The notes under the pieces were generated by a model. That model was not told the DNA's origin and ran no database searches. It saw only the letters and a program-made list of their open reading frames with translations. Shown piece after piece: positions 1,495 through 62,202 of a stretch of 64,000 nucleotides of DNA. Made by a program: the position numbers and the translations under genes. How positions within the stretch are numbered: position 1 is the first letter of the stretch; each line of letters opens with the position of its first letter. The stretch is from a phage. The DNA is taken from the sequence record PX393108.1, one strand, 5' to 3'.

Positions 1495-3588
1495 TTATCC
1501 TTGAACGAACTTGTAAGGTATGTTTGCAATATCTATGCAAGATGCAATAATTCCAAGAGATGATTCTACTTTTTGTTTAACATTTGATGAAACAAATGAT
1601 GCAAAGTCAACTCTGTCTCCTATTTCAATATCACCTGTCATTGCAACTACTTCACCAGTTTCCATTAGACGGTCACCGTCATAAATTACTGATTCGGTGA
1701 GTTCTTCCGTAGTCATAACTTCAGCTTGAATGAGTTTTGTATTATTAGATGTTGTTCCGTCATTATTAGAAGCATCAGTTATTTTATTAACTTTGACCAT
1801 CAATCCTCGTGGTAGAATAACTTCAGCTTCTGTTGCTATTCCGAGACTTCCTGGATATACAACATTAACTTTATGAGCTCCATCAATTGCCCATCCTATT
1901 TGAACTTTAACGTATTCAGGATTTTCTTTATACGCTCTTATTTCGCTTGGATTAATAGTTATTCCTTCTTCATTTTTATCAACTGTCAATTCATTACGAG
2001 CTTCTGGTTCTAAAAGACCAATACCAGCATGCGTAATTCCAAAACGCCCAAAAATGATAGGAGTTAAAGAAGTAGATACAAAATTTCTGAAATAGAACAC
2101 TTTATTTTTAACTAGCGCTTCGTATATAGGAGCAGTCATACTTTGAGCACGATAAACTGTAATGCCTTCTGGTATACGGTCACCGTTTTCAAAAGCTGAA
2201 TCTAAGTTATTTATAGCAGATTCAATTTCTTTTTCACTCATTACATCATATCGTTCTGGATTGTAGCGTCCTAAAAGAAGATTATTGATGTCAGTATATC
2301 CTGAACCACAATACTCTCTAATGCCGCGCTTTTGTGATGGAGTATATTTAGAACCATCACGGGCAATAGTAATATCAATCATTGGACCTGCACCAATTCC
2401 AGAAAAGCTATAAATCATTCTTTTGAGGAATTTAGTTTTTGCTGCGTTCCAGGAATTTTTAGTCATTTCTTCCCAGACTTCATCTGGCTGTCCTTTACGT
2501 GTTTTATTATGTTTATCAAGCCATTTATCTTTGTATTCTTCAAAGAATTTATTAACAGCTGCTGCGTATTTCTCTAAACATTTTATTGAAGTAGTTGGTT
2601 CATTTTTAATCGCATTAAGAATTACATCTTTAATTTTTTCAGAAACTTCATTAACCTCACTTTTTGAAAAGAATTTATAATCATAGTGAAGTTCATCTGC
2701 GGTTCCTTCGGCAATAATTTTTGCTGCCTTAGTTTTAGAAGCCAATGAATTAATTCCAAGTTTCATTTCTTCTGCTTCGGGAATTAAAGGAGCAGTAGCA
2801 GGTTTATTGAAATTAGCTGCGGTAGATTCATACTTCTGGAATAATTCACTTTCAAATCTAGAAGATTCTAATGATTGACTTTGCGCAATTGCTCTACGGG
2901 AAATTTTAACTTTAACGATTACAGCTTGGTCAGAACGCTTATCATTTTCTTGTGCAATAGATGCTGCAATTGCCTCATTTTTAGTTACTTGAGCTCCAGT
3001 ATCTTTATTGATATAAACATCGCCGACTTTCGATTCAACTTTAGTAAAGAGCTCGGTACTAATTTCCGGAACTCCTGGAATGTCTTCTAGTGATACATTT
3101 TTGCGATGTATAAGAATATATGCATACTTTTTATCGTAATCCCAGAGTTCCTTAAGAAGGACGTATCTGCCACCTGAACGACTACGGATAAGTCTATCAG
3201 CAATAAGTTGAATTTGACGAGCTTGACCAGCAGTTTTAGACTTAAGAATACGGAGCATACAGGCATCAATTTTATACTGACGCATCGTCTGCATCGCAAC
3301 AGTAAAAACTGAATTGATGTAATTAATTGGGCTTGGACCAAGACCTTTTAATTTAGCAATTGAACCTTTAGCAGTTAATGTAAAAGGAACAATATGCATC
3401 ATTTTATCGCCCATCTTTAAATCGCGATTAGTATCACCTCCAGATGTATAGGTACATAAACGAAAGCCTGGTTGTTCAATTGCGTCATCAACATGAACTG
3501 AAAAAATTTGTGGTATTTTCTTCTTTGGATTTAAGTTTGTAATCGGAAGAGTAGTATCTTCGTCAAATAATTCTGTAATGAGTTCCAT
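1495..3588 (-). CDS. alt: Alt, capsid-packaged ADP-ribosyltransferase
   Basis: ~697 aa directly downstream of the gene 30 region as in T4. ART-like R/S/E motifs (VYRAQ, STS, EAEV). Second ATG chosen because SD GAGAGGA abuts the first. TATAAATA late promoter upstream. Confidence 0.85.
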   Translation of the reverse strand: MELITELFDEDTTLPITNLNPKKKIPQIFSVHVDDAIEQPGFRLCTYTSGGDTNRDLKMGDKMMHIVPFTLTAKGSIAKLKGLGPSPINYINSVFTVAMQTMRQYKIDACMLRILKSKTAGQARQIQLIADRLIRSRSGGRYVLLKELWDYDKKYAYILIHRKNVSLEDIPGVPEISTELFTKVESKVGDVYINKDTGAQVTKNEAIAASIAQENDKRSDQAVIVKVKISRRAIAQSQSLESSRFESELFQKYESTAANFNKPATAPLIPEAEEMKLGINSLASKTKAAKIIAEGTADELHYDYKFFSKSEVNEVSEKIKDVILNAIKNEPTTSIKCLEKYAAAVNKFFEEYKDKWLDKHNKTRKGQPDEVWEEMTKNSWNAAKTKFLKRMIYSFSGIGAGPMIDITIARDGSKYTPSQKRGIREYCGSGYTDINNLLLGRYNPERYDVMSEKEIESAINNLDSAFENGDRIPEGITVYRAQSMTAPIYEALVKNKVFYFRNFVSTSLTPIIFGRFGITHAGIGLLEPEARNELTVDKNEEGITINPSEIRAYKENPEYVKVQIGWAIDGAHKVNVVYPGSLGIATEAEVILPRGLMVKVNKITDASNNDGTTSNNTKLIQAEVMTTEELTESVIYDGDRLMETGEVVAMTGDIEIGDRVDFASFVSSNVKQKVESSLGIIASCIDIANIPYKFVQG

Positions 3589-3612
3589 CATATCCTCTCT
3601 AGTGTTTATTCT

Positions 3613-3620
3613 ATTTATAA
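3613..3620 (-). promoter_or_regulatory. T4-type late promoter (TATAAATA) for alt
   Basis: Reverse complement of tatttata sits ~20 nt upstream of the alt start. Confidence 0.6.
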
Positions 3621-3624
3621 AATT

Positions 3625-3642
3625 AAAGGCCCGAAGGCCTTT
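3625..3642 (-). terminator. UUCG-tetraloop hairpin (AAAGGCC-UUCG-GGCCUUU)
   Basis: Perfect 7-bp inverted repeat with a 4-nt loop, followed in transcript orientation by a U-rich tract; lies between the small ORF and the alt promoter. Confidence 0.5.
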
Positions 3643-3829
3643 AATAATCTATTGGTAAGAGAGTACGATATATTTCAAACTTTGGACCTTTTTCATAGGC
3701 ATCAAATGTTTCTGTGAATTTATTATAAGCATATGCATCTATAAATTCAATCATAATTTGTGATACAGAAGTAGAAACATCTCCACCTTCTTTTTGAGCA
3801 ACGACAATTGTTTCTAAGTAAGCTTTCAT
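3641..3829 (-). CDS. hypothetical small protein (62 aa)
   Basis: ORF track; start overlaps the gene 30 stop (ATGA), suggesting translational coupling. Confidence 0.5.
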   Translation of the reverse strand: MKAYLETIVVAQKEGGDVSTSVSQIMIEFIDAYAYNKFTETFDAYEKGPKFEIYRTLLPIDY

Positions 3830-7538: not shown

Positions 7539-7545
7539 AGTATTT

Positions 7546-7559
7546 TCCTCAGTAAGGGG
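7546..7559 (-). other. UUCG-tetraloop hairpin (GGGGC-UUCG-GCCCC) just 5' of an RBS
   Basis: Perfect 5-bp GC stem; in transcript orientation sits immediately upstream of the SD of ORF 7251-7538. Confidence 0.5.
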
Positions 7560-7579
7560 CCGAAGCCCCTTATTTTATT

Positions 7580-7945: not shown

Positions 7946-8013
7946 TTTTATTCTCCGAGATGTTTAATTGCGGTACAGGTATATAATATCATATCCTGTA
8001 CCAAAGTAAACAA

Positions 8014-8373: not shown

Positions 8374-8403
8374 ATACTATCACAAAGGAACTATACTGTA
8401 AAC
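8374..8403 (-). promoter_or_regulatory. T4 early-type sigma70 promoter (-35 GTTTAC, 18-nt spacer, -10 TAGTAT)
   Basis: Reverse complement of gtaaac at 8398-8403 and atacta at 8374-8379, downstream of a terminator hairpin. Confidence 0.45.
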
Positions 8404-11861: not shown

Positions 11862-11891
11862 ATAATATCACAACTCTACCGTAAAGTAAAC
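11862..11891 (-). promoter_or_regulatory. T4 early-type promoter (-35 GTTTAC, -10 TATTAT)
   Basis: Reverse complement of gtaaac 11886-11891 and ataata 11862-11867, 18-nt spacer. Confidence 0.45.
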
Positions 11892-15158: not shown

Positions 15159-15219
15159 AAAGTCCTCATGTTATGTCAGTAAGACTACTGTAACACAACA
15201 CGAGGGACTTGTAAACAGC

Positions 15220-16807
<1,588 letters not shown>

Positions 16808-22159: not shown

Positions 22160-22986
<827 letters not shown>

Positions 22987-22997
22987 ATTATCTCCTA

Positions 22998-23330
22998 TTA
23001 AAAAGGATCAGGAACATATCCACTAGCTTTAATCATTTTAACTAATGTTACCATTCCTTTGTTAACTGCTTGTGAGATTTCATCAAAAACTTCATCATTA
23101 AAAAGTTCTAGCACACCCTTCTGAACTTTTAATTTACAGCCAACAATTTCGTCATCGCCTATAGTAAATTCATTACCGCCAATTCCACCGAAAAACTTAA
23201 TTACCCCAGTTAACTGTCTTCCACGAGAATATGGGTCATGTGATAAAGTAATATGAGTCACCCCAGGTACAGTTTTAAATTGACAGCGAATGTTTACTTG
23301 AGAAATTCCAGTTACATGAATGTCAGACAT
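22998..23330 (-). CDS. hypothetical protein (110 aa)
   Basis: ORF track. Confidence 0.55.
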   Translation of the reverse strand: MSDIHVTGISQVNIRCQFKTVPGVTHITLSHDPYSRGRQLTGVIKFFGGIGGNEFTIGDDEIVGCKLKVQKGVLELFNDEVFDEISQAVNKGMVTLVKMIKASGYVPDPF

Positions 23331-23583: not shown

Positions 23584-23608
23584 TTTATTCTCCTTAGTTG
23601 ATAGGGTA

Positions 23609-23638
23609 ATAGTATCACACTACTACCCTTCTGTAAAC
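23609..23638 (-). promoter_or_regulatory. T4 early-type promoter (-35 GTTTAC, -10 TACTAT)
   Basis: Reverse complement of gtaaac 23633-23638 and atagta 23609-23614, 18-nt spacer. Confidence 0.45.
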
Positions 23639-24062: not shown

Positions 24063-24314
24063 TTATTGTTCAATTAGTCCCATGTAAAATTCTGCGTCTT
24101 CAGAATCCATGCCGTCACAATACTCATTAGCCATAAAGCGGGTGAGGTCTTCAAGAGGACCTTCAATAACAATAGAAAAATTGCAATAATTGGGATCATC
24201 GTGAATACTTGTGATACTAAGCTCAGGATAACGATTACGAATAATTTCTTCAATATATTCAAAATCAACGATGTCAATATCAACTTTAGCCATATTATTT
24301 TCCTCTTTAATCAT
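24063..24314 (-). CDS. hypothetical acidic protein (83 aa)
   Basis: ORF track; early promoter cassette upstream. Confidence 0.5.
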
Positions 24315-24336
24315 CAGCAGTATTGCCGATAGTTGT

Positions 24337-24366
24337 ATAGTACCACAGTCCTTGTGGTATGTAAAC
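24337..24366 (-). promoter_or_regulatory. T4 early-type promoter, copy of a repeated ~50-bp cassette
   Basis: Reverse complement of gtaaac 24361-24366 and atagta 24337-24342; the surrounding ~50 bp recurs at 45536-45588 and partly at 41675-41716. Confidence 0.5.
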
Positions 24367-24397
24367 CGTTTTGTGAAAAAATTTTTGAAATAAAAAA

Positions 24398-24416
24398 GGG
24401 GACCTCTAGGGTCCCC
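24398..24416 (-). terminator. rho-independent terminator downstream of gene 32
   Basis: GGGGACC / GGTCCCC stem then UUUUUUAUUU in transcript orientation. Confidence 0.6.
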
Positions 24417-24438: not shown

Positions 24439-25347
24439 TTAAAGGTCATTCAAAAGGTCATCCAGGTCCGTGTCATCAGCACTAGATGAACTGCCAGAGC
24501 TTGAGCTCATAAAATCATCTTCAGTTTTTGTTTTGAAGTCATCAACATTAAATGCATCCAAATCATCAGCAACTTTATCAGCTTTCTTAGCGGCAGTCGC
24601 TGCGGCACCACCCATAGCAGCAGTTCCCATAACTTGACTGAACTTAGTGCTCAGTTCTTCAAACGATTTGAATTTATCTTTAGAAGTCATTTCAGAAAGG
24701 TCAACCATTTGTTCGAACAGTTCTTTCTGGAAAGATTCATCATCAATGTTTGGAATCGCAGATTGATTCAGGAATTTAGATTCGTCGTAGTTACTAAAAC
24801 CAGAAACTTGTTTAACTTTCAGTACAAAGTTAGCACCTTCCCACGGACAAGTTACATCAACCGGAGTTTCACCCATTTCAACATCAACTGCAATCATTGC
24901 ATTGATTTTATCCCAGATTTTCTTACCGAAACGGTATTTAAATACTTTACCTTCATTTTCTGGAGCAGCTGGGTCTTTTACTACAAGAATGTTAGCCCAG
25001 TAAGAAGTTTTACGTTTAACAAGACCATATTCTTTATTGTCAGTGTTGTACAAATCATTTTTATTGATGTACTGACATACTGGACAAGAATCGTAATCAC
25101 CGTGGGTAGATGAACAGTTTTCAATATACCATTTACCATTTTTCTTGAAACCGTGATTTACAAGAATTGCGAATGGTGCTTGTTCATCATTTTTAGACGG
25201 AAGAAAACGAATTACTGCTTGACCGTTACCCGCATTGTCGAGTTTCAGTTTCCACTCGCCTTTATCTTCAGAAGAAAAACCACCTTTATTTCCAGCCAGT
25301 TTAGCCATTTGTGCAGCGAGTTCAGCAGTAGATTTACGTTTAAACAT
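24439..25347 (-). CDS. 32: gp32 single-stranded DNA-binding protein
   Basis: 302 aa; [50 protein letters not shown]... matches recalled T4 gp32; acidic C-terminal tail. Confidence 0.97.
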
Positions 25348-25414
25348 TTTTATTTCCTTTTTAATTTAATTAACAGTTGGTGCTATGACGATGTATGACC
25401 TCATAGCTGGTCAG
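25348..25414 (-). promoter_or_regulatory. gene 32 translational operator (5' pseudoknot plus unstructured A/U-rich leader)
   Basis: Leader reads ...GCUAUGAGGUCAUACAUCGUCAUAGCACCAACUGUUAAUUAAAUUAAAAAGGAAAUAAAAAUG, matching the known autoregulatory site of T4 gene 32. Confidence 0.7.
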
Positions 25415-25430
25415 TGAGATAATTATAATC

Positions 25431-25438
25431 TATTTATA
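25431..25438 (-). promoter_or_regulatory. T4-type late promoter (TATAAATA) upstream of gene 32
   Basis: Reverse complement of tatttata. Confidence 0.45.
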
Positions 25439-25446
25439 ATAAGCAA

Positions 25447-26100
25447 TTAATACTTACAAGATTTCACAGTTTCAATGAAAACACTTTTGGCTTTCTGTGA
25501 ATCAATATTTAAAATTTTTCTATAAGCTTTTAACTTTATAGAATAATTATTCCAGACTAAATTATCAGTCTGTTCATCATGTTTATCAATTATATTTAAA
25601 AACGAATCAAGCAAGATAAACGTCTCAAACGAAATTATATTCGATTGAAGTAGTTTAAAAATATAACTTGATTGAACTTTTGGATTATATTCAAAAATTT
25701 CTTTAAAAGCAGAAACTTCAACTTTTTTACTAAAATAATAAATGTTGCGAATATCTTCTTCAAACTTAAATTTAATTTGCTTTAAGCGTCCGATATATTC
25801 ACGATAAAACACAAGTGCATCAGCGTCAGAGATGTCACCAATCCAAGCATCTTGGTTAGCAACAAGATTGCTTATAAAGATTAAAGCAAGTTCCTTTAAT
25901 TTATATTTTTCTGATAACTTCTGGAAAAAATACTTATCCCTTCGCTTTTGATAAGCGGCATCAGACACCCGCATGCACCAATTATACTTAATTACATCAT
26001 ACTTTCCATTCATATGTTGTTTTATCATTAAGTATAATTTATAAACTGATTTACCATCAATGTATCTTTCACCACCAGCAGGCATGCGGAGTTTAATCAT
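25447..26100 (-). CDS. 59: gp59 helicase-loading protein
   Basis: 217 aa; size and position between 33 and 32 as in T4. Confidence 0.9.
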   Translation of the reverse strand: MIKLRMPAGGERYIDGKSVYKLYLMIKQHMNGKYDVIKYNWCMRVSDAAYQKRRDKYFFQKLSEKYKLKELALIFISNLVANQDAWIGDISDADALVFYREYIGRLKQIKFKFEEDIRNIYYFSKKVEVSAFKEIFEYNPKVQSSYIFKLLQSNIISFETFILLDSFLNIIDKHDEQTDNLVWNNYSIKLKAYRKILNIDSQKAKSVFIETVKSCKY

Positions 26101-27608: not shown

Positions 27609-27670
27609 ATGAACCTCGTTCAATTAGTGAGATTTCTATTATATACCATCCGAATCTTAAAGTAAACAAG

Positions 27671-27712: not shown

Positions 27713-30700
27713 ATGGCCGAGATTAAAAGAAAGTTCAGAGCAGAAGATGGTCTGGACGCAGGTGGCGATAAAATAATCAACGTAGCTTTAGCTGATCGTA
27801 CCGTAGGAACTGACGGTGTTAACGTTGATTACCTAATTCAAGAAAACACAGTTCAACAATACGATCCAACTCGTGGATATTTAAAAGATTTTGTAATCAT
27901 TTATGATAACCGCTTTTGGGCTGCTATAAATGATATTCCAAAACCGGCAGGAGCTTTTAATAGCGGGCGCTGGAGAGCATTACGTACTGATGCTAACTGG
28001 ATTACAGTTTCATCTGGTTCATATCAATTAAAATCCGGTGAAGCTATTTCGGTTAACACTGCAGCTGGTAATGATATTACATTTACTTTACCATCTACTC
28101 CAATTGACGGTGATACTATCGTTCTCCAAGACATTGGAGGAAAACCTGGAGTTAACCAAGTTTTAATTGTAGCTCCAGTGCAAAGTATTGTAAACTTCAG
28201 AGGTCAGCAAGTACGTTCAGTACTAATGACTCATCCAAAATCACAGTTGGTTTTAATTTTTAGTAATCGTCTGTGGCAAATGTATGTTGCTGATTATAGT
28301 AGAGAAGCTGTAATTGCAACACCAGCGAATACTTATCAAGCGCAATCTAACGATTTTATCGTACGTAGATTTACTTCTGCTGCACCGATTAATATTAAAC
28401 TTCCGAGATTTGCCAATCACGGCGATATTATTAATTTCGTCGATTTGGATAAATTAAATCCGCTTTATCATACAATTGTTACAACATATGATGAAACCAC
28501 TTCAGTACAAGAAGTTGGAACTCATTCTATTGAAGGCCGTACATCTATTGACGGTTTCTTGATGTATGACGATAATGAGAAATTATGGAGATTATTTGAC
28601 GGGGACAGTAAAGCACGTTTACGTATCATAACAACTAATTCAAACATTCGTCCAAATGAAGAAGTTATGGTATTTGGTGCGAATAATGGAACAACTCAAA
28701 CGATTGAGCTTCAGCTTCCAACTAATATTTCTGTTGGTGATACTGTTAAAATTTCCATGAATTACATGAGAAAAGGACAAACAGTTAAAATCAAAGCTGC
28801 CGGTGAAGATAAAATTGCTTCTTCAGTTCAATTGCTGCAATTCCCAAAACGTTCAGAATATCCGCCTGAAGCTGAATGGGTAACTGTTCAAGAATTAGTT
28901 TTTAACGGTGAAACTAATTATGTTCCAGTTTTACAACTTGCTTATATAGAAGATTCTGACGGAAAATACTGGGTTGTACAGCAAAACGTTCCAACTGTAG
29001 AAAGAGTTGATTCTTTGAATGATTCTACTAGAGCAAGATTAGGCGTAATTGCTTTAGCTACACAAGCTCAAGCTAATGCCGATTTAGAAAATTCTCCACA
29101 AAAAGAATTAGCAATTACTCCAGAAACATTAGCTAACCGTACTGCTACAGAAACTCGTAGAGGTATCGCAAGAATAGCAACAACTGCTCAAGTGAATCAG
29201 AACACCACATTCTCTTTTGCTGATGATATTATCATCACTCCTAAAAAGCTGAATGAAAGAACTGCTACAGAAACTCGTAGAGGTGTTGCTGAAATTGCTA
29301 CGCAACAGGAAACTAATGCAGGTACTGATGATACTACAATCATTACTCCTAAAAAGCTTCAAGCTCGACAAGGTTCTGAATCATTATCAGGTATTGTAAC
29401 CTTTGTATCTACCGCAGGAGCTACTCCAGCTTCTAGTCGTGAATTAAATGGTACAAATGTTTATAATAAAAACACTAATAATTTAGTTGTTTCGCCTAAA
29501 GCTCTGGATCAGTATAAAGCTACTCCAACACAGCAAGGTGCAGTAATTTTAGCAGTTGAAAGTGAAGTAATTGCTGGACAAAGCCAAGAAGGATGGGCAA
29601 ATGCGGTTGTAACACCAGAAACGTTACATAAAAAGACATCAACTGATGGAAGAATTGGTTTAATTGAAATTGCTACGCAAAGTGAAGTTAATACAGGAAC
29701 TGATTATACTCGTGCAGTCACTCCTAAAACTTTAAATGACCGTATAGCAACTGAAAGTTTAAGTGGTATAGCTGAAATTGCTACACAAGTTGAATTCGAC
29801 GCAGGCGTCGACGATACTCGTATCTCTACACCATTAAAAATTAAAACTAGATTTAATAGTACTGATCGTACTTCTGTTGTTGCTCTATCTGGATTAGTTG
29901 AATCAGGAACTCTCTGGGACCATTATACCCTTAATATTCTTGAAGCAAATGAGACACAGCGTGGTACACTTCGTGTAGCTACACAAGTTGAAGCTGCTGC
30001 AGGAACATTAGATAATGTTTTAATAACTCCTAAAAAGCTTTTAGGTACTAAATCTACTGAAGCACAGGAAGGTGTTATTAAAGTTGCAACTCAGTCTGAA
30101 ACTGTGACTGGAACGTCAGCAAATACTGCTGTATCTCCAAAAAATTTAAAATGGATTGTGCAGAGTGAACCTACTTGGGCAGCTACTACTGCGATAAGAG
30201 GCTTTGTTAAAACTTCATCTGGTTCAATTACATTCGTTGGTAATGATACAGTTGGTTCAACACAGTCGTTAGAATTATACGAGAAAAATAGCTATGCAGT
30301 ATCACCATATGAATTAAACCGTGTATTAGCAAATTATTTACCGTTAAAAGCAAAAGCTGCTGATACAAATTTATTGGATGGTCTAGATTCATCTCAGTTC
30401 ATTCGTAGGGATATTGCACAGACGGTTAATGGTTCACTAACCTTAACCCAACAAACGAATCTGAGTGCCCCTCTTGTATCATCTAGTACTGCTACGTTTG
30501 GTGGTTCAGTTTCGGCAAATAGTACATTAACTATTTCTAATACTGGAACGGCAACTCGTCTGATTTTTGAGAAAGGACCTCAAACTGGAACTAACCCAGC
30601 ACAGACGATGACTATCAGAGTTTGGGGAAATCAGTTCGGTGGCGGTTCAGATACAACACGTTCTACTGTATTTGAAGTTGGTGATGAAACGTCTAATCAC

Positions 30701-39181: not shown

Positions 39182-39334
39182 TCAATTAGTTGACTTTATT
39201 ATAATATCATCAGACGCTTGATTTGTAAACTGGTCTGTGTTATTTTCTTCAAAAATTTTTTCTACGAATTCCTTGAACGACTTACGTTCCTGAGCTACAT
39301 TATGCTCGATTACCTTTTCAAGATTATGACTCAT
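39182..39334 (-). CDS. small acidic protein (50 aa), not in ORF track
   Basis: Hand-translated MSHNLEKVIEHNVAQERKSFKEFVEKIFEENNTDQFTNQASDDIIIKSTN; its ATG overlaps the arn stop (ATGA). Confidence 0.4.
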   Translation of the reverse strand: MSHNLEKVIEHNVAQERKSFKEFVEKIFEENNTDQFTNQASDDIIIKSTN

Positions 39335-41003: not shown

Positions 41004-41639
41004 TCACAGTTCAGATGCTACGGTGATTACTGCTTCAATGTTTTCTGCCGAGCGTTTAATGTCAAGATACACATTACCATTTTTAGCGATTTTACATGAC
41101 ATTCCGATATCAGTAAATTTCTGAATATGATGTTCCATCATTTTGTATCCAAAAATTCGCATATTTCCATTGTTGTTAATTTCAAAATTACGAATTCCGT
41201 GAGTGCGTTTTTCTAAAATAGCGAGATAGTTACTACGATAAGTTTCAACCTTTTTAAGAACAAATCCATTTTCATCTAAAAGTTTTAACATGAAGTCTTT
41301 ATCTTCTTCCATATCAGAAGTAATCTCACGAGCTTTACGAGTTGCTCGTTTTTTCAGTAGTTCCGGAGCATTTTCCTGTGCGTATAAAGTTGCTGCATTT
41401 GAAATAATATCCTGAGCTTCACCAGTAATGATTAATCCATCACCAGATTTCTCCACCAGGCCTTTTTTAATCAATACCCCAATATTACTATTAACTACTG
41501 CATTACCTAAATCTGGATGCACCTCACGAACTTCTGCAGCTGTAATGAAATCTTTCTTAGCAATGGTAATTAAAATCGCAGCAGTTTTTTCATTCAGAAC
41601 ATCGTTAGAAGCTTTGATGATGTAAGTTACTTTAGACAT
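41004..41639 (-). CDS. motA: MotA middle-transcription activator
   Basis: 211 aa; MSKVTYIIKASNDVLNEKTAAILITIAKKDFITAAEVREV... matches recalled T4 MotA. Confidence 0.95.
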   Translation of the reverse strand: MSKVTYIIKASNDVLNEKTAAILITIAKKDFITAAEVREVHPDLGNAVVNSNIGVLIKKGLVEKSGDGLIITGEAQDIISNAATLYAQENAPELLKKRATRKAREITSDMEEDKDFMLKLLDENGFVLKKVETYRSNYLAILEKRTHGIRNFEINNNGNMRIFGYKMMEHHIQKFTDIGMSCKIAKNGNVYLDIKRSAENIEAVITVASEL

Positions 41640-41680
41640 TTTCTAATCTCCGTAATTCTGTATCAGTAGTTGATAGTTGT

Positions 41681-41710
41681 ATAGTACCACAGTATGCTTT
41701 GGTTGTAAAC
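41681..41710 (-). promoter_or_regulatory. T4 early-type promoter upstream of motA
   Basis: Reverse complement of gtaaac 41705-41710 and atagta 41681-41686; shares the tagttgtatagtaccacag module with two other copies. Confidence 0.5.
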
Positions 41711-41741
41711 CGTTTTGTGAAAAAAATTTTGAAATAAAAAA

Positions 41742-41761
41742 GGGAGAGCCTCGGCTCTCCC
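41742..41761 (-). terminator. rho-independent terminator after the gene 52 / small ORF unit
   Basis: GAGAGC / GCUCUC stem followed by UUUUUUAUUUC in transcript orientation. Confidence 0.55.
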
Positions 41762-41767
41762 TAAAAT

Positions 41768-44822: not shown

Positions 44823-44852
44823 ATAATACCACAGAGGAACAGTCTTGTAAAC
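44823..44852 (-). promoter_or_regulatory. T4 early-type promoter (-35 GTTTAC, -10 TATTAT)
   Basis: Reverse complement of gtaaac 44847-44852 and ataata 44823-44828. Confidence 0.45.
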
Positions 44853-44958: not shown

Positions 44959-45041
44959 AATAACCTCATCACAAAAGTAAATACTAAACAAATCAATGGA
45001 ATACTAATTAACCAAACAAAACACCACCACAATGAACTCAT
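44955..45041 (-). CDS. small hydrophobic peptide (28 aa), not in track
   Basis: Hand-translated MSSLWWCFVWLISIPLICLVFTFVMRLL; ATGA overlaps at both ends. Confidence 0.3.
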   Translation of the reverse strand: MSSLWWCFVWLISIPLICLVFTFVMRLL

Positions 45042-45310
45042 AGTTCAATCTCAGCGATTTTCATTTCATTACTATTAATAGCCGCTTTAAGACTATCTGA
45101 AAGAATTACATTCCAGTGGTCATTCATATGACCATTAACTAAACGTGTAATTTCTTCGGGAGTTGAAAAATAAGGCGTATCAGACTCCCAATGCGATAGT
45201 CCCAAGCGAGTATAAATCATACCTTCATCATCGCTAGAATATTCAACTGACACAAACTCATCAGTTATTTTATGTTTAGCGTAATAAAATTTAAATTTCA
45301 TTTTACTCAA
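45038..45310 (-). CDS. hypothetical protein (90 aa)
   Basis: ORF track. Confidence 0.5.
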   Translation of the reverse strand: MSKMKFKFYYAKHKITDEFVSVEYSSDDEGMIYTRLGLSHWESDTPYFSTPEEITRLVNGHMNDHWNVILSDSLKAAINSNEMKIAEIEL

Positions 45311-45513
45311 TAATCCGCTAAAAGATCGACGATTGCATCACGAAGACACTTATTCGCAATACGCTTAAGAGCAATTTCAGTTTCTGGAGCATTTTGAATA
45401 ATCATTGAATTCAATTCAGCCTCAGCAAACTGAAGTTCTTTAACTAATTCAGCTTTATATTTTCCTTGCCCTTTCTTAGCTTTTGCTCGTTTTAATTCAG
45501 CTGTAGTAAACAT
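45307..45513 (-). CDS. hypothetical protein (68 aa from internal ATG)
   Basis: MFTTAELKRAKAKKGQGKYK... with SD GGAGAA; the upstream part of the track ORF overlaps the promoter cassette. Confidence 0.45.
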   Translation of the reverse strand: MFTTAELKRAKAKKGQGKYKAELVKELQFAEAELNSMIIQNAPETEIALKRIANKCLRDAIVDLLADY

Positions 45514-45547
45514 TTTGTTCTCCAAATCCGTATCAGTTGATAGTTGT

Positions 45548-45577
45548 ATAGTACCACAGTCCTTGTGGTATGTAAAC
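45548..45577 (-). promoter_or_regulatory. T4 early-type promoter, near-identical cassette copy
   Basis: gatagttgtatagtaccacagtccttgtggtatgtaaaccgttttgtgaaaa is shared with the copy at 24328-24380. Confidence 0.5.
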
Positions 45578-45593
45578 CGTTTTGTGAAAATTT

Positions 45594-46151
45594 TTAAATG
45601 GAAAGATACCATCCGTTGTAGTTGCTTTTTCTTACAACCTTACGAAGGTCTTCTCTATCACCGATGAACTTCGGAGTGTACTGGATGACACCTGGATGAA
45701 TTTCTTTAGTGTTGAATATAATTATACAGTCAGCGACCTGATGATTCAGAATGGGCCCTAGATTTATTCCAGAACCGTATGGATACTCTCCGCTGCATCC
45801 GGTTGTTACCGAAATCCAGCGTGAGTCAGTTTGGTGTGTTTTGACTTCTACACGAAGCCCGCAATATCTTGGATGCGCCAATACATCCCATGCATATGTA
45901 TACGGGTCATTAACATCCTCTTGGCCTTTGTTAACATACCCGCTCAACCAATCTGCTACAAAAAACTCTGCATACACAGCGATACGGCATCTTTCGATGA
46001 CTTCTGCTTTATCCTGATTAGGATTTTGTTTTAAAGAGTATCTTGCTGTATCAGCAATTTTGACCTTCATTTCACTAGTCAAGTCATTGTTCGATAGGGT
46101 AAATGTCGGAATCTGAAATAGTCTCTGTAAACCCGGATTCGTTTTCTGCAT
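45594..46151 (-). CDS. denB: endonuclease IV
   Basis: 185 aa; size and position next to rIIB as in T4. Confidence 0.85.
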   Translation of the reverse strand: MQKTNPGLQRLFQIPTFTLSNNDLTSEMKVKIADTARYSLKQNPNQDKAEVIERCRIAVYAEFFVADWLSGYVNKGQEDVNDPYTYAWDVLAHPRYCGLRVEVKTHQTDSRWISVTTGCSGEYPYGSGINLGPILNHQVADCIIIFNTKEIHPGVIQYTPKFIGDREDLRKVVRKSNYNGWYLSI

Positions 46152-46217
46152 TGAACTTTCCTTTTACGTCGGAATCACTGATATTCATACAATAAATCAT
46201 AGTTTCCCTTAAAACAA

Positions 46218-46233
46218 AAGGGCCGAAGCCCTT
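46218..46233 (-). other. UUCG hairpin (AAGGGC-UUCG-GCCCUU)
   Basis: Perfect stem/loop between denB and the 64-aa ORF. Confidence 0.45.
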
Positions 46234-46237
46234 TATT

Positions 46238-46432
46238 TTATTTGAACTGTGCAATTCTTTTCTCTAAACAATCCGCGTAAGATTTCATTGAGATGAACTG
46301 CGAAAGCAACAGTTCTTGCTCAACTGCATTAACCGTTGAAAACTTTTCACTTTCTAAAAATTTGCTCAGTGCATTAATTTTGAGCATTAATTGATCGTAT
46401 TCTTCTTTTACTCGTGCTTGATAACCTAACAT
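46238..46432 (-). CDS. hypothetical protein (64 aa)
   Basis: ORF track; SD AAGGAAAA follows an upstream hairpin. Confidence 0.5.
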   Translation of the reverse strand: MLGYQARVKEEYDQLMLKINALSKFLESEKFSTVNAVEQELLLSQFISMKSYADCLEKRIAQFK

Positions 46433-46446
46433 AATTTTCCTTAGTT

Positions 46447-46462
46447 AAGGGCCGAAGCCCTT
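46447..46462 (-). other. UUCG hairpin (AAGGGC-UUCG-GCCCUU) at the rIIB 3' end
   Basis: Second near-identical copy of the 46218 hairpin, immediately 5' of the next SD. Confidence 0.45.
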
Positions 46463-47399
46463 ATTTAAATTGTTCAGTAACGTCTTCAACTACTTCGTAT
46501 TGGCAGGTACGCATTTTAGCATCGTTGTAATCAATCGGAATTGATACTACATCGCGAGGATGTACTTTAACTTTTACAACTCGGCTGGTTGAACTGCCAA
46601 AGTGACGAATATAAGATTTAGAACACACGTGCAGACCGCGAGAACAAGTTTGTGTATCATCGTCATTCACACGAGTACGTGGCATTTTAACTACTTTACC
46701 AGGGCTGTTATCAAAGGTATTTGAGTGACAGTCAAAGTAATTGCTGCGAACTACTTTCCAAGCATAGAAGTAGCCGTCTTCTGTAATTTCAATATCGTTT
46801 GCTACCAAGAAATCAAAGAGTCGAGATACCGCTTTTTGGCTCGGGTTTTCCAACAGATTTTCCAAGAACGGAAAATAAAATTCAAAGTTTTCGCCTTTTT
46901 CCATCGAATCGAGAATACGATCAACTAAACCAGACCGCAATTCAATATTTTGATAGAACAAGCTTCCACCTTCAATTCGAACATCACCGGAAATATATTT
47001 TTCAACAGCGCGCCGAACGTTAATTTTTTGCGCTGCTTCTTCCAATTTATCTGCAACAAGCAGATTAAGAATTTCTTGGAAGTTTGAATGAGTATTAGGA
47101 GTTGCGTTATAAGTTACGCCGTCAACGGTAATTGAAATGAATTTTTTAGATGCATTCCAAATAATGTCAGATTTAGCAACTGGAGCAATAGCTGCATCGC
47201 TCTTAACTGTAACTGTAATGTCACCGCTAATGGTAACTTTGGAACGCTCAGCTTCTTCAGCATTTTTCAAAACACGACGGATTGTGTCAACCGATACACC
47301 TTGCCAATCAGCCAATTCCTGTTGAGTGTAATTACCACTTGAATACAGTTTGACAATTTCAGCTTGTTCGTTTTTGGTCAGGCATTTAATATTGTACAT
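46461..47399 (-). CDS. rIIB: rIIB membrane-associated protein
   Basis: 312 aa; MYNIKCLTKNEQAEIVKLYSSGNYTQQELADWQGVSVDTIRR... matches recalled T4 rIIB. Confidence 0.95.
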   Translation of the reverse strand: MYNIKCLTKNEQAEIVKLYSSGNYTQQELADWQGVSVDTIRRVLKNAEEAERSKVTISGDITVTVKSDAAIAPVAKSDIIWNASKKFISITVDGVTYNATPNTHSNFQEILNLLVADKLEEAAQKINVRRAVEKYISGDVRIEGGSLFYQNIELRSGLVDRILDSMEKGENFEFYFPFLENLLENPSQKAVSRLFDFLVANDIEITEDGYFYAWKVVRSNYFDCHSNTFDNSPGKVVKMPRTRVNDDDTQTCSRGLHVCSKSYIRHFGSSTSRVVKVKVHPRDVVSIPIDYNDAKMRTCQYEVVEDVTEQFK

Positions 47400-49827: not shown

Positions 49828-49857
49828 ATTATACCACATCCTTGTGGTAAAGTAAAC
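49828..49857 (-). promoter_or_regulatory. T4 early-type promoter (-35 GTTTAC, -10 TATAAT)
   Basis: Reverse complement of gtaaac 49852-49857 and attata 49828-49833, 18-nt spacer. Confidence 0.55.
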
Positions 49858-51677: not shown

Positions 51678-51726
51678 TTATCCTCGTTTGGTTTCGGAAA
51701 TATTATACTCCAGTAATCATAAAGCT

Positions 51727-51744
51727 AAAGGCCCGAAGGCCTTT
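51727..51744 (-). other. UUCG hairpin (AAAGGCC-UUCG-GGCCUUU)
   Basis: Same sequence as the hairpin at 3625-3642; lies between the lipoprotein ORF and gene 39. Confidence 0.45.
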
Positions 51745-52016
51745 TATTTAAAGCGGATAGTCGAATCCTTGAAGAATAGACCAGAACATACGGTTCCTTC
51801 TACTTTCTGCCCGGTAGGTCCAATAGCACGAAATCCAGTATGTTGGAAATCATTTTCAGAGCAACCGAACCAATTATATCCAGTGATTTCAATATTAGTA
51901 AAACCACTTGAAGACAAAACTTTGGTTGCATTATCAGCATCAGTACATCCTACTAAAGATACTGCTAATACTAATGCCGCGATAGAACGATTAACATATT
52001 TCATAATTTCACTCAA
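51744..52016 (-). CDS. putative lipoprotein (90 aa)
   Basis: Signal peptide with lipobox LVGC|T. Confidence 0.55.
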   Translation of the reverse strand: MSEIMKYVNRSIAALVLAVSLVGCTDADNATKVLSSSGFTNIEITGYNWFGCSENDFQHTGFRAIGPTGQKVEGTVCSGLFFKDSTIRFK

Positions 52017-53476: not shown

Positions 53477-53561
53477 GTTGTTTTCTGTATCAGTAGTTGA
53501 TATTGATATAATACCATAATCAACTACTGATGTATATAGTTTTATGAAAAAAATTTAAACT

Positions 53562-54059
53562 TTATGCACAGCGAGCTTTGCTATAATGTTTAATCCAACT
53601 TTCAGGAATGACTTTGTATGTTCCTAAAAATACCGCGTTGTACAGCTTAACACCATCTTCTACCCACTGATCGGTAATGTACGCGCACATAGCACGAGTA
53701 CGGCGTTTTTGAACAACCCCTTCCTCATCTTCAGTAAATTCGAATTCATAAGGAGCAACGAACTTAATAGCTTGACCGAGTTTCCACTTAAAGTCTACAC
53801 CTACATGTGAAGTATCAATCGTTTCAATTCCTTTAGCAGGAACAGCTTTCAAAAACGCAGACTCAAGAAATTTCGCACGAACATAGCCAAACTGAGGTTT
53901 AGACTTTCCATCTTTAGGAATGATACGCACTTTTACTTCAGAATCTTCATCTTTAACGCCATGTTTAAGCTGAATGCTTACAATTTCGACCAATTTTCCT
54001 GCTGCTTTAGAGCGGGATTTATCAGATACACGAGCTAATTCACCAATATTAATAATCAT
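53562..54059 (-). CDS. motB: MotB-like protein
   Basis: 165 aa; position upstream of dexA; the C-terminal segment YITDQWVEDGVKLYNAVFLGTYKVIPESW is paralogous to the next ORF. Assignment by synteny and size only. Confidence 0.55.
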   Translation of the reverse strand: MIINIGELARVSDKSRSKAAGKLVEIVSIQLKHGVKDEDSEVKVRIIPKDGKSKPQFGYVRAKFLESAFLKAVPAKGIETIDTSHVGVDFKWKLGQAIKFVAPYEFEFTEDEEGVVQKRRTRAMCAYITDQWVEDGVKLYNAVFLGTYKVIPESWIKHYSKARCA

Positions 54060-54103: not shown

Positions 54104-54133
54104 ATTATACTCTGGTCCCAAGAGTTTGTAAAC
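54104..54133 (-). promoter_or_regulatory. T4 early-type promoter (-35 GTTTAC, -10 TATAAT) upstream of motB
   Basis: Reverse complement of gtaaac 54128-54133 and attata 54104-54109; the -10 lies inside an inverted repeat (gggaccA..Tggtccc). Confidence 0.5.
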
Positions 54134-55108: not shown

Positions 55109-55138
55109 ATAATACCATAACTAACCGAGGAAGTAAAC
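55109..55138 (-). promoter_or_regulatory. T4 early-type promoter (-35 GTTTAC, -10 TATTAT)
   Basis: Reverse complement of gtaaac 55133-55138 and ataata 55109-55114. Confidence 0.45.
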
Positions 55139-58735: not shown

Positions 58736-58765
58736 ACTATAACATTTTTACTTCAGCTTGTAAAC
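58736..58765 (-). promoter_or_regulatory. T4 early-type promoter (-35 GTTTAC, -10 TATAGT)
   Basis: Reverse complement of gtaaac 58760-58765 and actata 58736-58741. Confidence 0.45.
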
Positions 58766-60070: not shown

Positions 60071-60100
60071 ATCATATCATTGTTAGGAAGGAAAGTAAAC
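60071..60100 (-). promoter_or_regulatory. T4 early-type promoter upstream of the mod genes
   Basis: Reverse complement of gtaaac 60095-60100 and atcata 60071-60076. Confidence 0.45.
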
Positions 60101-62172: not shown

Positions 62173-62202
62173 ATTATACCATACTCATTTTAGAAAGTAA
62201 AC
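62173..62202 (-). promoter_or_regulatory. T4 early-type promoter (-35 GTTTAC, -10 TATAAT)
   Basis: Reverse complement of gtaaac 62197-62202 and attata 62173-62178. Confidence 0.5.

Follow-up and report, generated by a model that had tools for sequence, protein, structure and literature searches.

Spacer alleles of a T4-type early promoter and the probable short-patch replacement behind an exact 52-nt repeat in a T4-like phage

Two identical units and one close variant in the phage DNA that we analyzed (record PX393108.1; the whole stretch of 64,000 nucleotides is called the window) are most probably T4-type early promoters, and the identity between the copy in front of the frd.3 homologue and the copy behind denB would result from short-patch ectopic replacement of a promoter spacer. 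We put the probability of this reading at about 85%. As T4 early promoters the elements are nothing out of the ordinary; two of the three show the arrangement published as promoter-early stem-loops (PeSLs), and the idea that such elements take part in recombination has also been published. What is new is modest: a polymorphism of four spacer alleles at the frd.3 promoter, probably the footprint of ectopic conversion, that is not described in the searchable literature. In the literature covered, searches turned up nothing directly relevant on gene conversion of promoters among T4-like phages or on start-site maps of the whole T4 genome.

Judged from its sequence, the window belongs to a T4-like coliphage (Tequatrovirus); three 1.2-kb probes taken around the sites retrieved hundreds of Tequatrovirus genomes at 97-99% identity. 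The early genes are on the minus strand, as are the window's genes, promoters and gene-end terminators described below. The first unit, at 24328, is located between gene 32 (24439-25347), which encodes the ssDNA-binding protein and whose transcription unit ends at a terminator just upstream of this copy, and the frd.3 homologue (24063-24293, 76 aa), which has the SD aagagga and an ATG 43 nt after the -10. The variant, at 41672, is located between motA.1/gene 52 and motA (41004-41639, 211 aa), whose start codon follows 41 nt after the -10. The second copy, at 45539, comes directly after denB (45594-46151, 185 aa), with the denB stop codon (45594-45596) 17 nt upstream of its -35. The interval between the identical copies contains genes 32, 59, 33, rnh, 34-37, t, asiA, motA and 52. 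Apart from the missing segG and a 37/38 region that has diverged, it is collinear with T4.

The repeat is an exact string of 52 nt with two occurrences, at 24328-24379 and 45539-45590, in the same orientation and 21.2 kb from each other. No other exact direct repeat of the 64-kb window is as long, the runner-up reaching 32 nt, and chance as its source is excluded by the lack of any match in 100 shuffles. An assembly artefact is disfavoured, as the same arrangement is present in about 100 independent records. The variant (41672-41744) has 88% identity with 24328-24400 over 73 nt; its 18-nt spacer is different and stands between two 22-nt blocks that match exactly. The original prediction, made from the letters of the sequence, had named both the identical pair and the variant, and both exist; however, its first range was 1 nt too long, its second (45536-45588) was displaced by 3 nt, and its range for the variant was 41675-41716.

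Read in transcript orientation, each unit has an A/T-rich tract ttttttatttcaaaaattttttcacaaaacg followed by GTTTAC, then 18 nt that end in gTGg, the hexamer TACTAT, a short leader, and an SD with ATG. In the core of the frd.3 promoter (24328-24379) the -35 is at 24361-24366, the spacer, here called allele A (ataccacaaggactgtgg), at 24343-24360, the TG of the extended -10 at 24344-24345 and the -10 at 24337-24342, with a predicted start at ~24330. The motA promoter has its -35 at 41705-41710, a different spacer (allele B, aaccaaagcatactgtgg) at 41687-41704, the -10 at 41681-41686 and a predicted start at ~41674. The corresponding positions of the post-denB promoter, which has allele A, are 45572-45577, 45554-45571, 45548-45553 and ~45541, and its A/T tract extends into the 3' end of denB. 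At all three sites the 18 nt from GTTTAC to TACTAT, equivalent to 17 nt from TTTACA to TACTAT, end in the gTGg of an extended -10; the A/T-rich tract reads tttttatttcaaaaattttttcacaaaacg or similar, and SD and ATG follow 34-43 nt after the -10. The mean A+T content of the 30 nt upstream of the -35 is 72%, compared to 64% for the window overall.

Early promoters of T4 have GTTTAC at -36 to -31 (PMC1524935) and are exceptionally strong sigma-70 promoters of the UP/-35/TGn/-10 type that are further stimulated by Alt (Hinton 2010, PMC2988021; Nolan et al. 2006, PMC1524935). Their consensus, GTTTAC-N14-gtggTAttaT (Miller et al. 2003), is quoted in the annotation of OL960580 (phage SA21RB), in which the orthologue of the frd.3 site is labelled "similar to phage T4 early promoter". 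The units in the window have the same -35, the same spacing, the same TGn and -10, the A/T tract and the orientation along the early-gene strand, and in T4 near-identical sequences occupy the orthologous positions upstream of frd.3, motA and ndd.6. Nothing essential sets them apart from the T4 promoters; the frd.3 spacer is that of the post-denB promoter here and that of the nrdC.10 promoter in T4. The designation of the units as early-promoter cassettes is thus borne out by the match to the T4 consensus, by the T4-orthologous positions and by the early genes that they face. Consensus and orthology make it likely that the promoters are active in this phage. Unmodified host sigma-70 RNA polymerase would read the three units immediately after infection and thereby transcribe frd.3, motA and the small ORFs that follow denB, each unit having an SD and start ~25-45 nt downstream.

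The same signature recurs throughout the window. There are 17 matches to the pattern GTTTAC-N18-TAnnnT, every one of them on the minus strand, where 0.86 +/- 1.11 would be expected; three of these are the cassette sites, and 14 are additional. Their consensus, GTTTAC a...c........TgTG. TAttAT, is the T4 consensus GTTTAC(N14)gtggTAttaT quoted in the OL960580 annotation. Only this T4-specific pattern was informative, as a generic sigma-70 scan had no discrimination (87 hits, compared to 77-79 in shuffles). Together with one match that has a 17-nt gap (7983-8011), the survey gives 18 promoter candidates, 14 of them with an SD plus ATG 25-43 nt downstream. Several of the candidates stand a short distance in front of longer ORFs: 11862-11891 (30 nt upstream of an ORF of 175 aa), 15187-15216 (28 nt, 168 aa), 27638-27667 (29 nt, 305 aa), 55109-55138 (27 nt, 167 aa) and 60071-60100 (26 nt, 207 aa). 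The candidates upstream of frd.1 (23609-23638) and of a 37-aa ndd.5-like ORF (44823-44852) have the 5' leader taccctatcaacta[c/a]ggag in common, and the one at 49828-49857 carries a spacer, tttaccacaaggatgtgg, that is related to allele A. Further motif matches are located at 54104-54133 (TTTACA-N17-TATAAT, 11/12) and 58736-58765. The match at 39201-39230 has a TG before the -10, and a simple rule did not find an SD/ATG near it; the match at 28166-28195, which also is without a nearby SD/ATG, is possibly not functional. A diverged member of the family (53499-53571, TATACA-N17-TATTAT) is 60% identical to the first copy, and its 5' leader, aactactgatacagaa, is also that of the motA promoter.

Terminators accompany only some of these promoters. 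The terminator of gene 32 (24398-24416) consists of GGGGACC-CTAGA-GGTCCCC followed by TTTTTTATTT, with a stem of 7 bp, 6 of them GC, and a folding energy of -14.3 kcal/mol; it is located 31 nt upstream of the -35. The one after motA.1/gene 52 (41741-41762) reads AGGGAGAGCCGAGGCTCTCCCT and then TTTTTTATTTC, has 9 bp, 6 of them GC (-19.7 kcal/mol, z = -4.3), and precedes the -35 by 30 nt. With a GC-rich hairpin and a U-run, both fit a rho-independent terminator. Upstream of the 45539 copy (45578-45640), no terminator was found, only a weak fold that is not of the terminator type. The claim that each unit is a terminator hairpin followed by a -35 therefore holds for the copies at 24328 and 41672 but not for the one at 45539, which begins 17 nt after the denB stop. 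Similarly, the claim of at least ten further copies with the same architecture is right for the promoter motif, but a terminator is present within 90 nt upstream in only 4 of the 18 candidates; the composite architecture recurs at 8374-8403 and 62173-62202, where the hairpin is 28 and 14 nt upstream, respectively.

How two distant promoters came to be identical is suggested by a comparison of the frd.3 promoter among related phages. We collected matches to cacaaaacRGTTTAC-N18-TACTATacaactatc from IMG/VR, metagenomes, T4 and two relatives; as these pattern scans yielded 8 loci from IMG/VR and 19 from metagenomes, frequencies were taken from allele-specific BLAST probes. In the sampled loci the flanks at frd.3 are constant, with the gene-32 terminator upstream and ggcaatactgct plus the start of frd.3 downstream, and the 18-nt spacer between them occurs in four forms, A to D, each of which is also found at another promoter. 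Allele A, present at frd.3 in the window and in one other phage (with a variant in a third), is also the spacer of the post-denB promoter, although T4 and other phages deviate from it there by a single C/T difference. Allele B (aaccaaagcatactgtgg) is present at frd.3 in two phages and at the motA promoter in every genome sampled. Allele C (aagcataaagctttatgg), the frd.3 spacer of T4 and SA21RB, is also that of the nrdC.10 promoter (55.36 kb in T4, and three further loci). Allele D (atccttgtccttccatgg), present at frd.3 in two phages and as a variant in a third, recurs at the e.8 promoter, exactly in one phage (L028) and with one mismatch in T4 and another phage (L019). T4 itself has an exact pair of 58 nt formed by its frd.3 and nrdC.10 promoters (146.85 and 55.36 kb), and further members of the family are located upstream of imm.1 (27.06 kb), nrdC.8 (53.92 kb) and e.8 (70.67 kb).

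With 51-nt allele-specific probes against 50,697 phage records, we counted about 100 records for A, 85 for B, 85 for C and 320 for D in which at least 80% of the probe was covered, and the matched positions fit the frd.3 locus; the counts are approximate and include redundant GenBank and RefSeq records. Each allele accordingly makes up roughly 14-54% of the records at frd.3. In the comparison with SA21RB, the closest relative in this region and a carrier of allele C, there are 15 mismatches over 1201 ungapped nt, and 10 of them fall within 24346-24367. This cluster has the form of a patch replacement in otherwise almost identical DNA.

The spacers themselves show dyad symmetry wholly between the -35 and the -10 at 24337-24360, 45548-45571, 49828-49857 and 16370-16391, and also in the nrdC.10 and frd.3 promoters of T4; examples are TACCACAaggacTGTGGTA, with arms of 7 bp, and CATAAAG-CTTTATG, a perfect 14-nt palindrome.

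The flanks group the three sites with other T-even early promoters in a paralogous sub-family that has at least 7 members. Common to all of them are a left flank of ~20-40 nt (ttttttcacaaaacgGTTTAC) and a right flank of ~15-17 nt (ggTACTATacaactatc). Neither convergence nor simple descent can account for identical non-consensus 18-mers across loci together with several alleles at one locus. Under the explanation that we prefer, the 18-nt spacer of the frd.3 promoter would have been overwritten by the post-denB spacer, which would have produced the exact identity over 52 nt. This would have happened by non-reciprocal homologous recombination, in the form of short-patch ectopic gene conversion or of template switching, for which the conserved flanks just described would have served as priming homology. 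The sequences themselves show the anatomy of the units, their orthology to T4 promoter positions, the spacer polymorphism, the patch-like replacement and the differing gene content beside the cassettes; promoter activity in this phage, the conversion mechanism and the direction of transfer are what we infer from them.

The surroundings of the frd.3 promoter suggest that exchange at this place is frequent. Two downstream haplotypes, distinguished by ~17 linked differences including a 3-nt indel, are located roughly 135 nt after the promoter, and two upstream haplotypes are recognized in the 3' end of gene 32. In a MAFFT alignment of ten genomes (L001, L002, L005, L014, L015, L018, L024, L025, L030 and the window), all four alleles are found on both downstream haplotypes, and B, C and D also on both upstream haplotypes. 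The presence of the alleles on nearly all haplotype combinations indicates intense recombination around the frd.3 cassette. Because the alleles are mixed over the haplotypes, the pattern fits recurrent ectopic events, with transfer in either direction, and equally well single events, in which each allele would have been copied into frd.3 once and then spread by allelic recombination. Since D is the majority allele at frd.3, this locus could for D be the donor and not the recipient. An earlier notion that D is foreign to frd.3 was dropped, as the probe counts make D the majority allele there, and with it any claim on direction was given up. Nor does the shared "T" variant of allele A prove that the exchange took place within the genome of this phage, since many phages with allele A are without an identical second copy. 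Among the best 8 allele-A records, 6 have one probe match only, so that their two copies are not identical.

A more far-reaching version of the conversion explanation is that the T-even promoters with the flanks cacaaaacNGTTTAC ... TACTATacaactatc form a concerted-evolution family and that the frd.3 promoter is a hotspot of ectopic short-patch conversion, its four spacer alleles having been copied from or to the post-denB, motA, nrdC.10 and e.8 promoters and being in linkage equilibrium with haplotypes ~135 nt away. We offer this version tentatively and regard it as rather unlikely to hold in full.

The reading of the cassettes in the original prediction is essentially that of the published PeSL model, in which they serve mainly as portable homology for reciprocal crossovers, whether these excise or integrate ORF mini-circles or exchange genes during co-infection; the identical copies would then be where modules are swapped. 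PeSLs were described in phages RB49 and phi1, where inverse PCR detected mini-circles (Arbiol, Comeau, Krisch 2010; PMC2839356), and were extended to T4/PST with the pattern TTTACW-N17-TAYWAT, a stem-loop just upstream, and an example from the same ndd region (Comeau, Arbiol, Krisch 2014; Fig. 6A in PMC4122927). The formation of mini-circles by recombination has been shown experimentally only for RB49/phi1 (PMC2839356). The units at 24328 and 41672, and also those at 8403 and 62202, have the PeSL components, that is a terminator, an A/T tract, a sigma-70-like promoter and an SD with ATG; TTTACA-N17-TACTAT fits the T4/PST type, indels of small ORFs adjoin the cassettes, and the ndd region is involved in both cases. 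In contrast to PeSLs, the 45539 copy and most promoters of the window are without a stem-loop, and the clearest footprint in our data is a non-crossover replacement of a spacer between distant cassettes. The PeSL papers do not discuss gene conversion, and the term has 0 occurrences in PMC2839356.

Gene order varies among relatives at two of the three cassettes (post-denB and motA) and is invariant at frd.3, where the flanking genes stay and the spacer is swapped. Unchanging gene order, which would have spoken against the original prediction, is thus not what two of the three sites show, in agreement with the PeSL picture. After denB, the order promoter, ORF A, ORF B, ndd.6 is found in the window, in UFV-AREG1 and in one further phage (L023), whereas in seven others (L007, L010-L013, L020, L026) the promoter is followed by ORF B. 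ORF A (45307-45513, 68 aa), the first gene after the second copy, is missing in T4; 129 phage records contain it, PST and T2 among them, and this restricted distribution is in line with the PeSL model. Of ORF B (45038-45301, 87 aa; ATG at 45299-45301), T4 retains no more than the final 8 codons (MKIAEIEL), which are joined to the SD/ATG of the promoter, and this remnant identifies T4 as a deletion derivative. At the motA site of three phages (L008, L022, L023), an ORF of 75 aa and an additional early promoter separate the motA-type promoter from motA; HP3 and Sf21 are examples of phages with this ORF between tandem cassettes. This insert is bracketed by a direct repeat of ~35 nt, TACTATa.a.ctatcaaataaatgaactgaaac; the 75-aa ORF is found in 168 records and is absent from the window and T4. 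Finally, promoters of the nrdC.10 type with identical leaders precede different genes in two phages (L029, L021).

The details of the junctions fit the PeSL model less well. The indel junctions that could be resolved are located at short SD/ATG homologies downstream of the -10 and outside the promoter core; those after denB use homologies of 5-10 nt around the SD/ATG, and one of the partners is inside ORF B and not in a cassette. A further junction in the SD region is seen at a mini-ORF of 22 codons (MFAPYIMAAVMLVCLYLLIKAC) with its own SD, which T4 carries between the early promoter and frd.1 (2519-2591 in the T4 segment L002, ~146.02-146.09 kb); it is unannotated in NC_000866 and absent at the corresponding place in the window (23588-23597). 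Arbiol et al. also mapped crossovers to the leader/SD/ATG part (PMC2839356). No relocation of ORF A or of the 75-aa ORF was seen in the 129 and 168 records, each of which has the ORF at one place only. Moreover, a crossover between the identical copies would yield a lethal deletion or an unpackageable duplication of the 21.2-kb block; with essential genes between them, only the non-crossover outcome would be viable, and the 52-nt identity is best understood as a trace that recombination left, not as a working exchange site. Module shuffling is an evolutionary by-product and not an established function. The PeSL model as the main explanation is possible, and we hold it to be somewhat doubtful. 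For the prediction that these repeats act as recombination sites for swapping gene modules, the outcome is divided: spacers appear to have been exchanged between distant cassettes and gene content differs at two of three sites, but the identical pair itself is not a usable swap site.

Lambdoid morons are ORFs flanked by a promoter and a terminator of their own, and the small accessory ORFs with their own promoter, such as the 75-aa ORF between two cassettes in L008, resemble them. However, the cassette described here is a common regulatory element of these phages and not imported DNA. The GC content of novel ORFs in T4-type phages is phage-like, and these ORFs are not counted among the morons (PMC1524935).

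A different explanation is that selection keeps the spacers identical, with the dyad-symmetric spacers (TACCACAaggacTGTGGTA; CATAAAGCTTTATG) serving as regulator sites or as tuners of promoter strength. The 7-bp inverted repeats in alleles A and C and the related spacers at 49828 and 16370 are consistent with this explanation, as is the view that T4 early promoters carry conserved information beyond the standard elements (Hinton review, PMC2988021). However, frd.3 tolerates four unrelated spacers, each with a substantial share of the records, identical 18-mers at different loci cannot be products of convergence, and no candidate binding protein was found; we therefore consider selection on the spacers, which may have a function all the same, improbable as the cause of the identity. 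Copies that are dispersed, near-identical and intergenic could also point to the insertion of small mobile elements (MITE-like or homing-associated) between genes, but this can be set aside as very improbable: every site is also occupied in T4 and other relatives, terminal inverted repeats and target duplications are lacking, orthologous sites differ in the 18-nt spacer only, and the strand bias is perfect and follows transcription.

The promoter element belongs to the textbook knowledge of T4, and a role for it in genome plasticity was proposed in print as early as 2010; in these respects nothing fundamental is added. The spacer replacement that we favour offers a natural example, in about 600 sequenced T-even phages, of 18-nt spacers that would have moved between promoters up to ~90 kb apart with the help of only ~15-40 nt of flanking homology. 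It may thus provide a sequence-based read-out of ectopic recombination in T4-like phages, for which sequencing an amplicon of the frd.3 promoter would suffice. The natural spacer variants are also a resource for studying the effects of spacers on very strong sigma-70 promoters. If the spacers differ in strength or regulation, then conversion would re-tune early expression by means of ready-made promoter variants.

Several other features of the window were noted. The homing endonuclease gene segG, located between genes 32 and 59 in T4, is missing (window 25347-25447, compared to 110-742 in the T4 segment L034); whether double-strand breaks of the SegG type near gene 32 lead to more exchange at the adjacent frd.3 promoter is a matter of speculation. 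Between frd and frd.1, ~510 nt (22762-23273) contain two small minus-strand ORFs (81 and 110 aa) that are present in SA21RB and absent from T4. A complete ORF of 698 aa (1495-3591, minus strand) presumably encodes an Alt ADP-ribosyltransferase, as recognized from the protein sequence; the segments 780-1452 and 2874-3546, 2,094 nt apart, are ~72% identical, and a second, diverged tandem copy of the Alt-like ORF seems to be present upstream of it. The region 29055-30039, which aligns to the tail-fibre gene 34 of T4, has several internal direct repeats of 25-68 nt with 66-84% identity. GC-rich hairpins recur in intergenic regions at 7542-7579, 46205-46242 and 46434-46471, and also at 3612-3645 and 51714-51747. 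Hairpins with terminator-like scores, AAGGGCCGAAGCCCTT and AAAGGCCCGAAGGCCTTT, stand on both sides of denB.1, and the hairpin at 46217-46234 is terminator-like on both strands.
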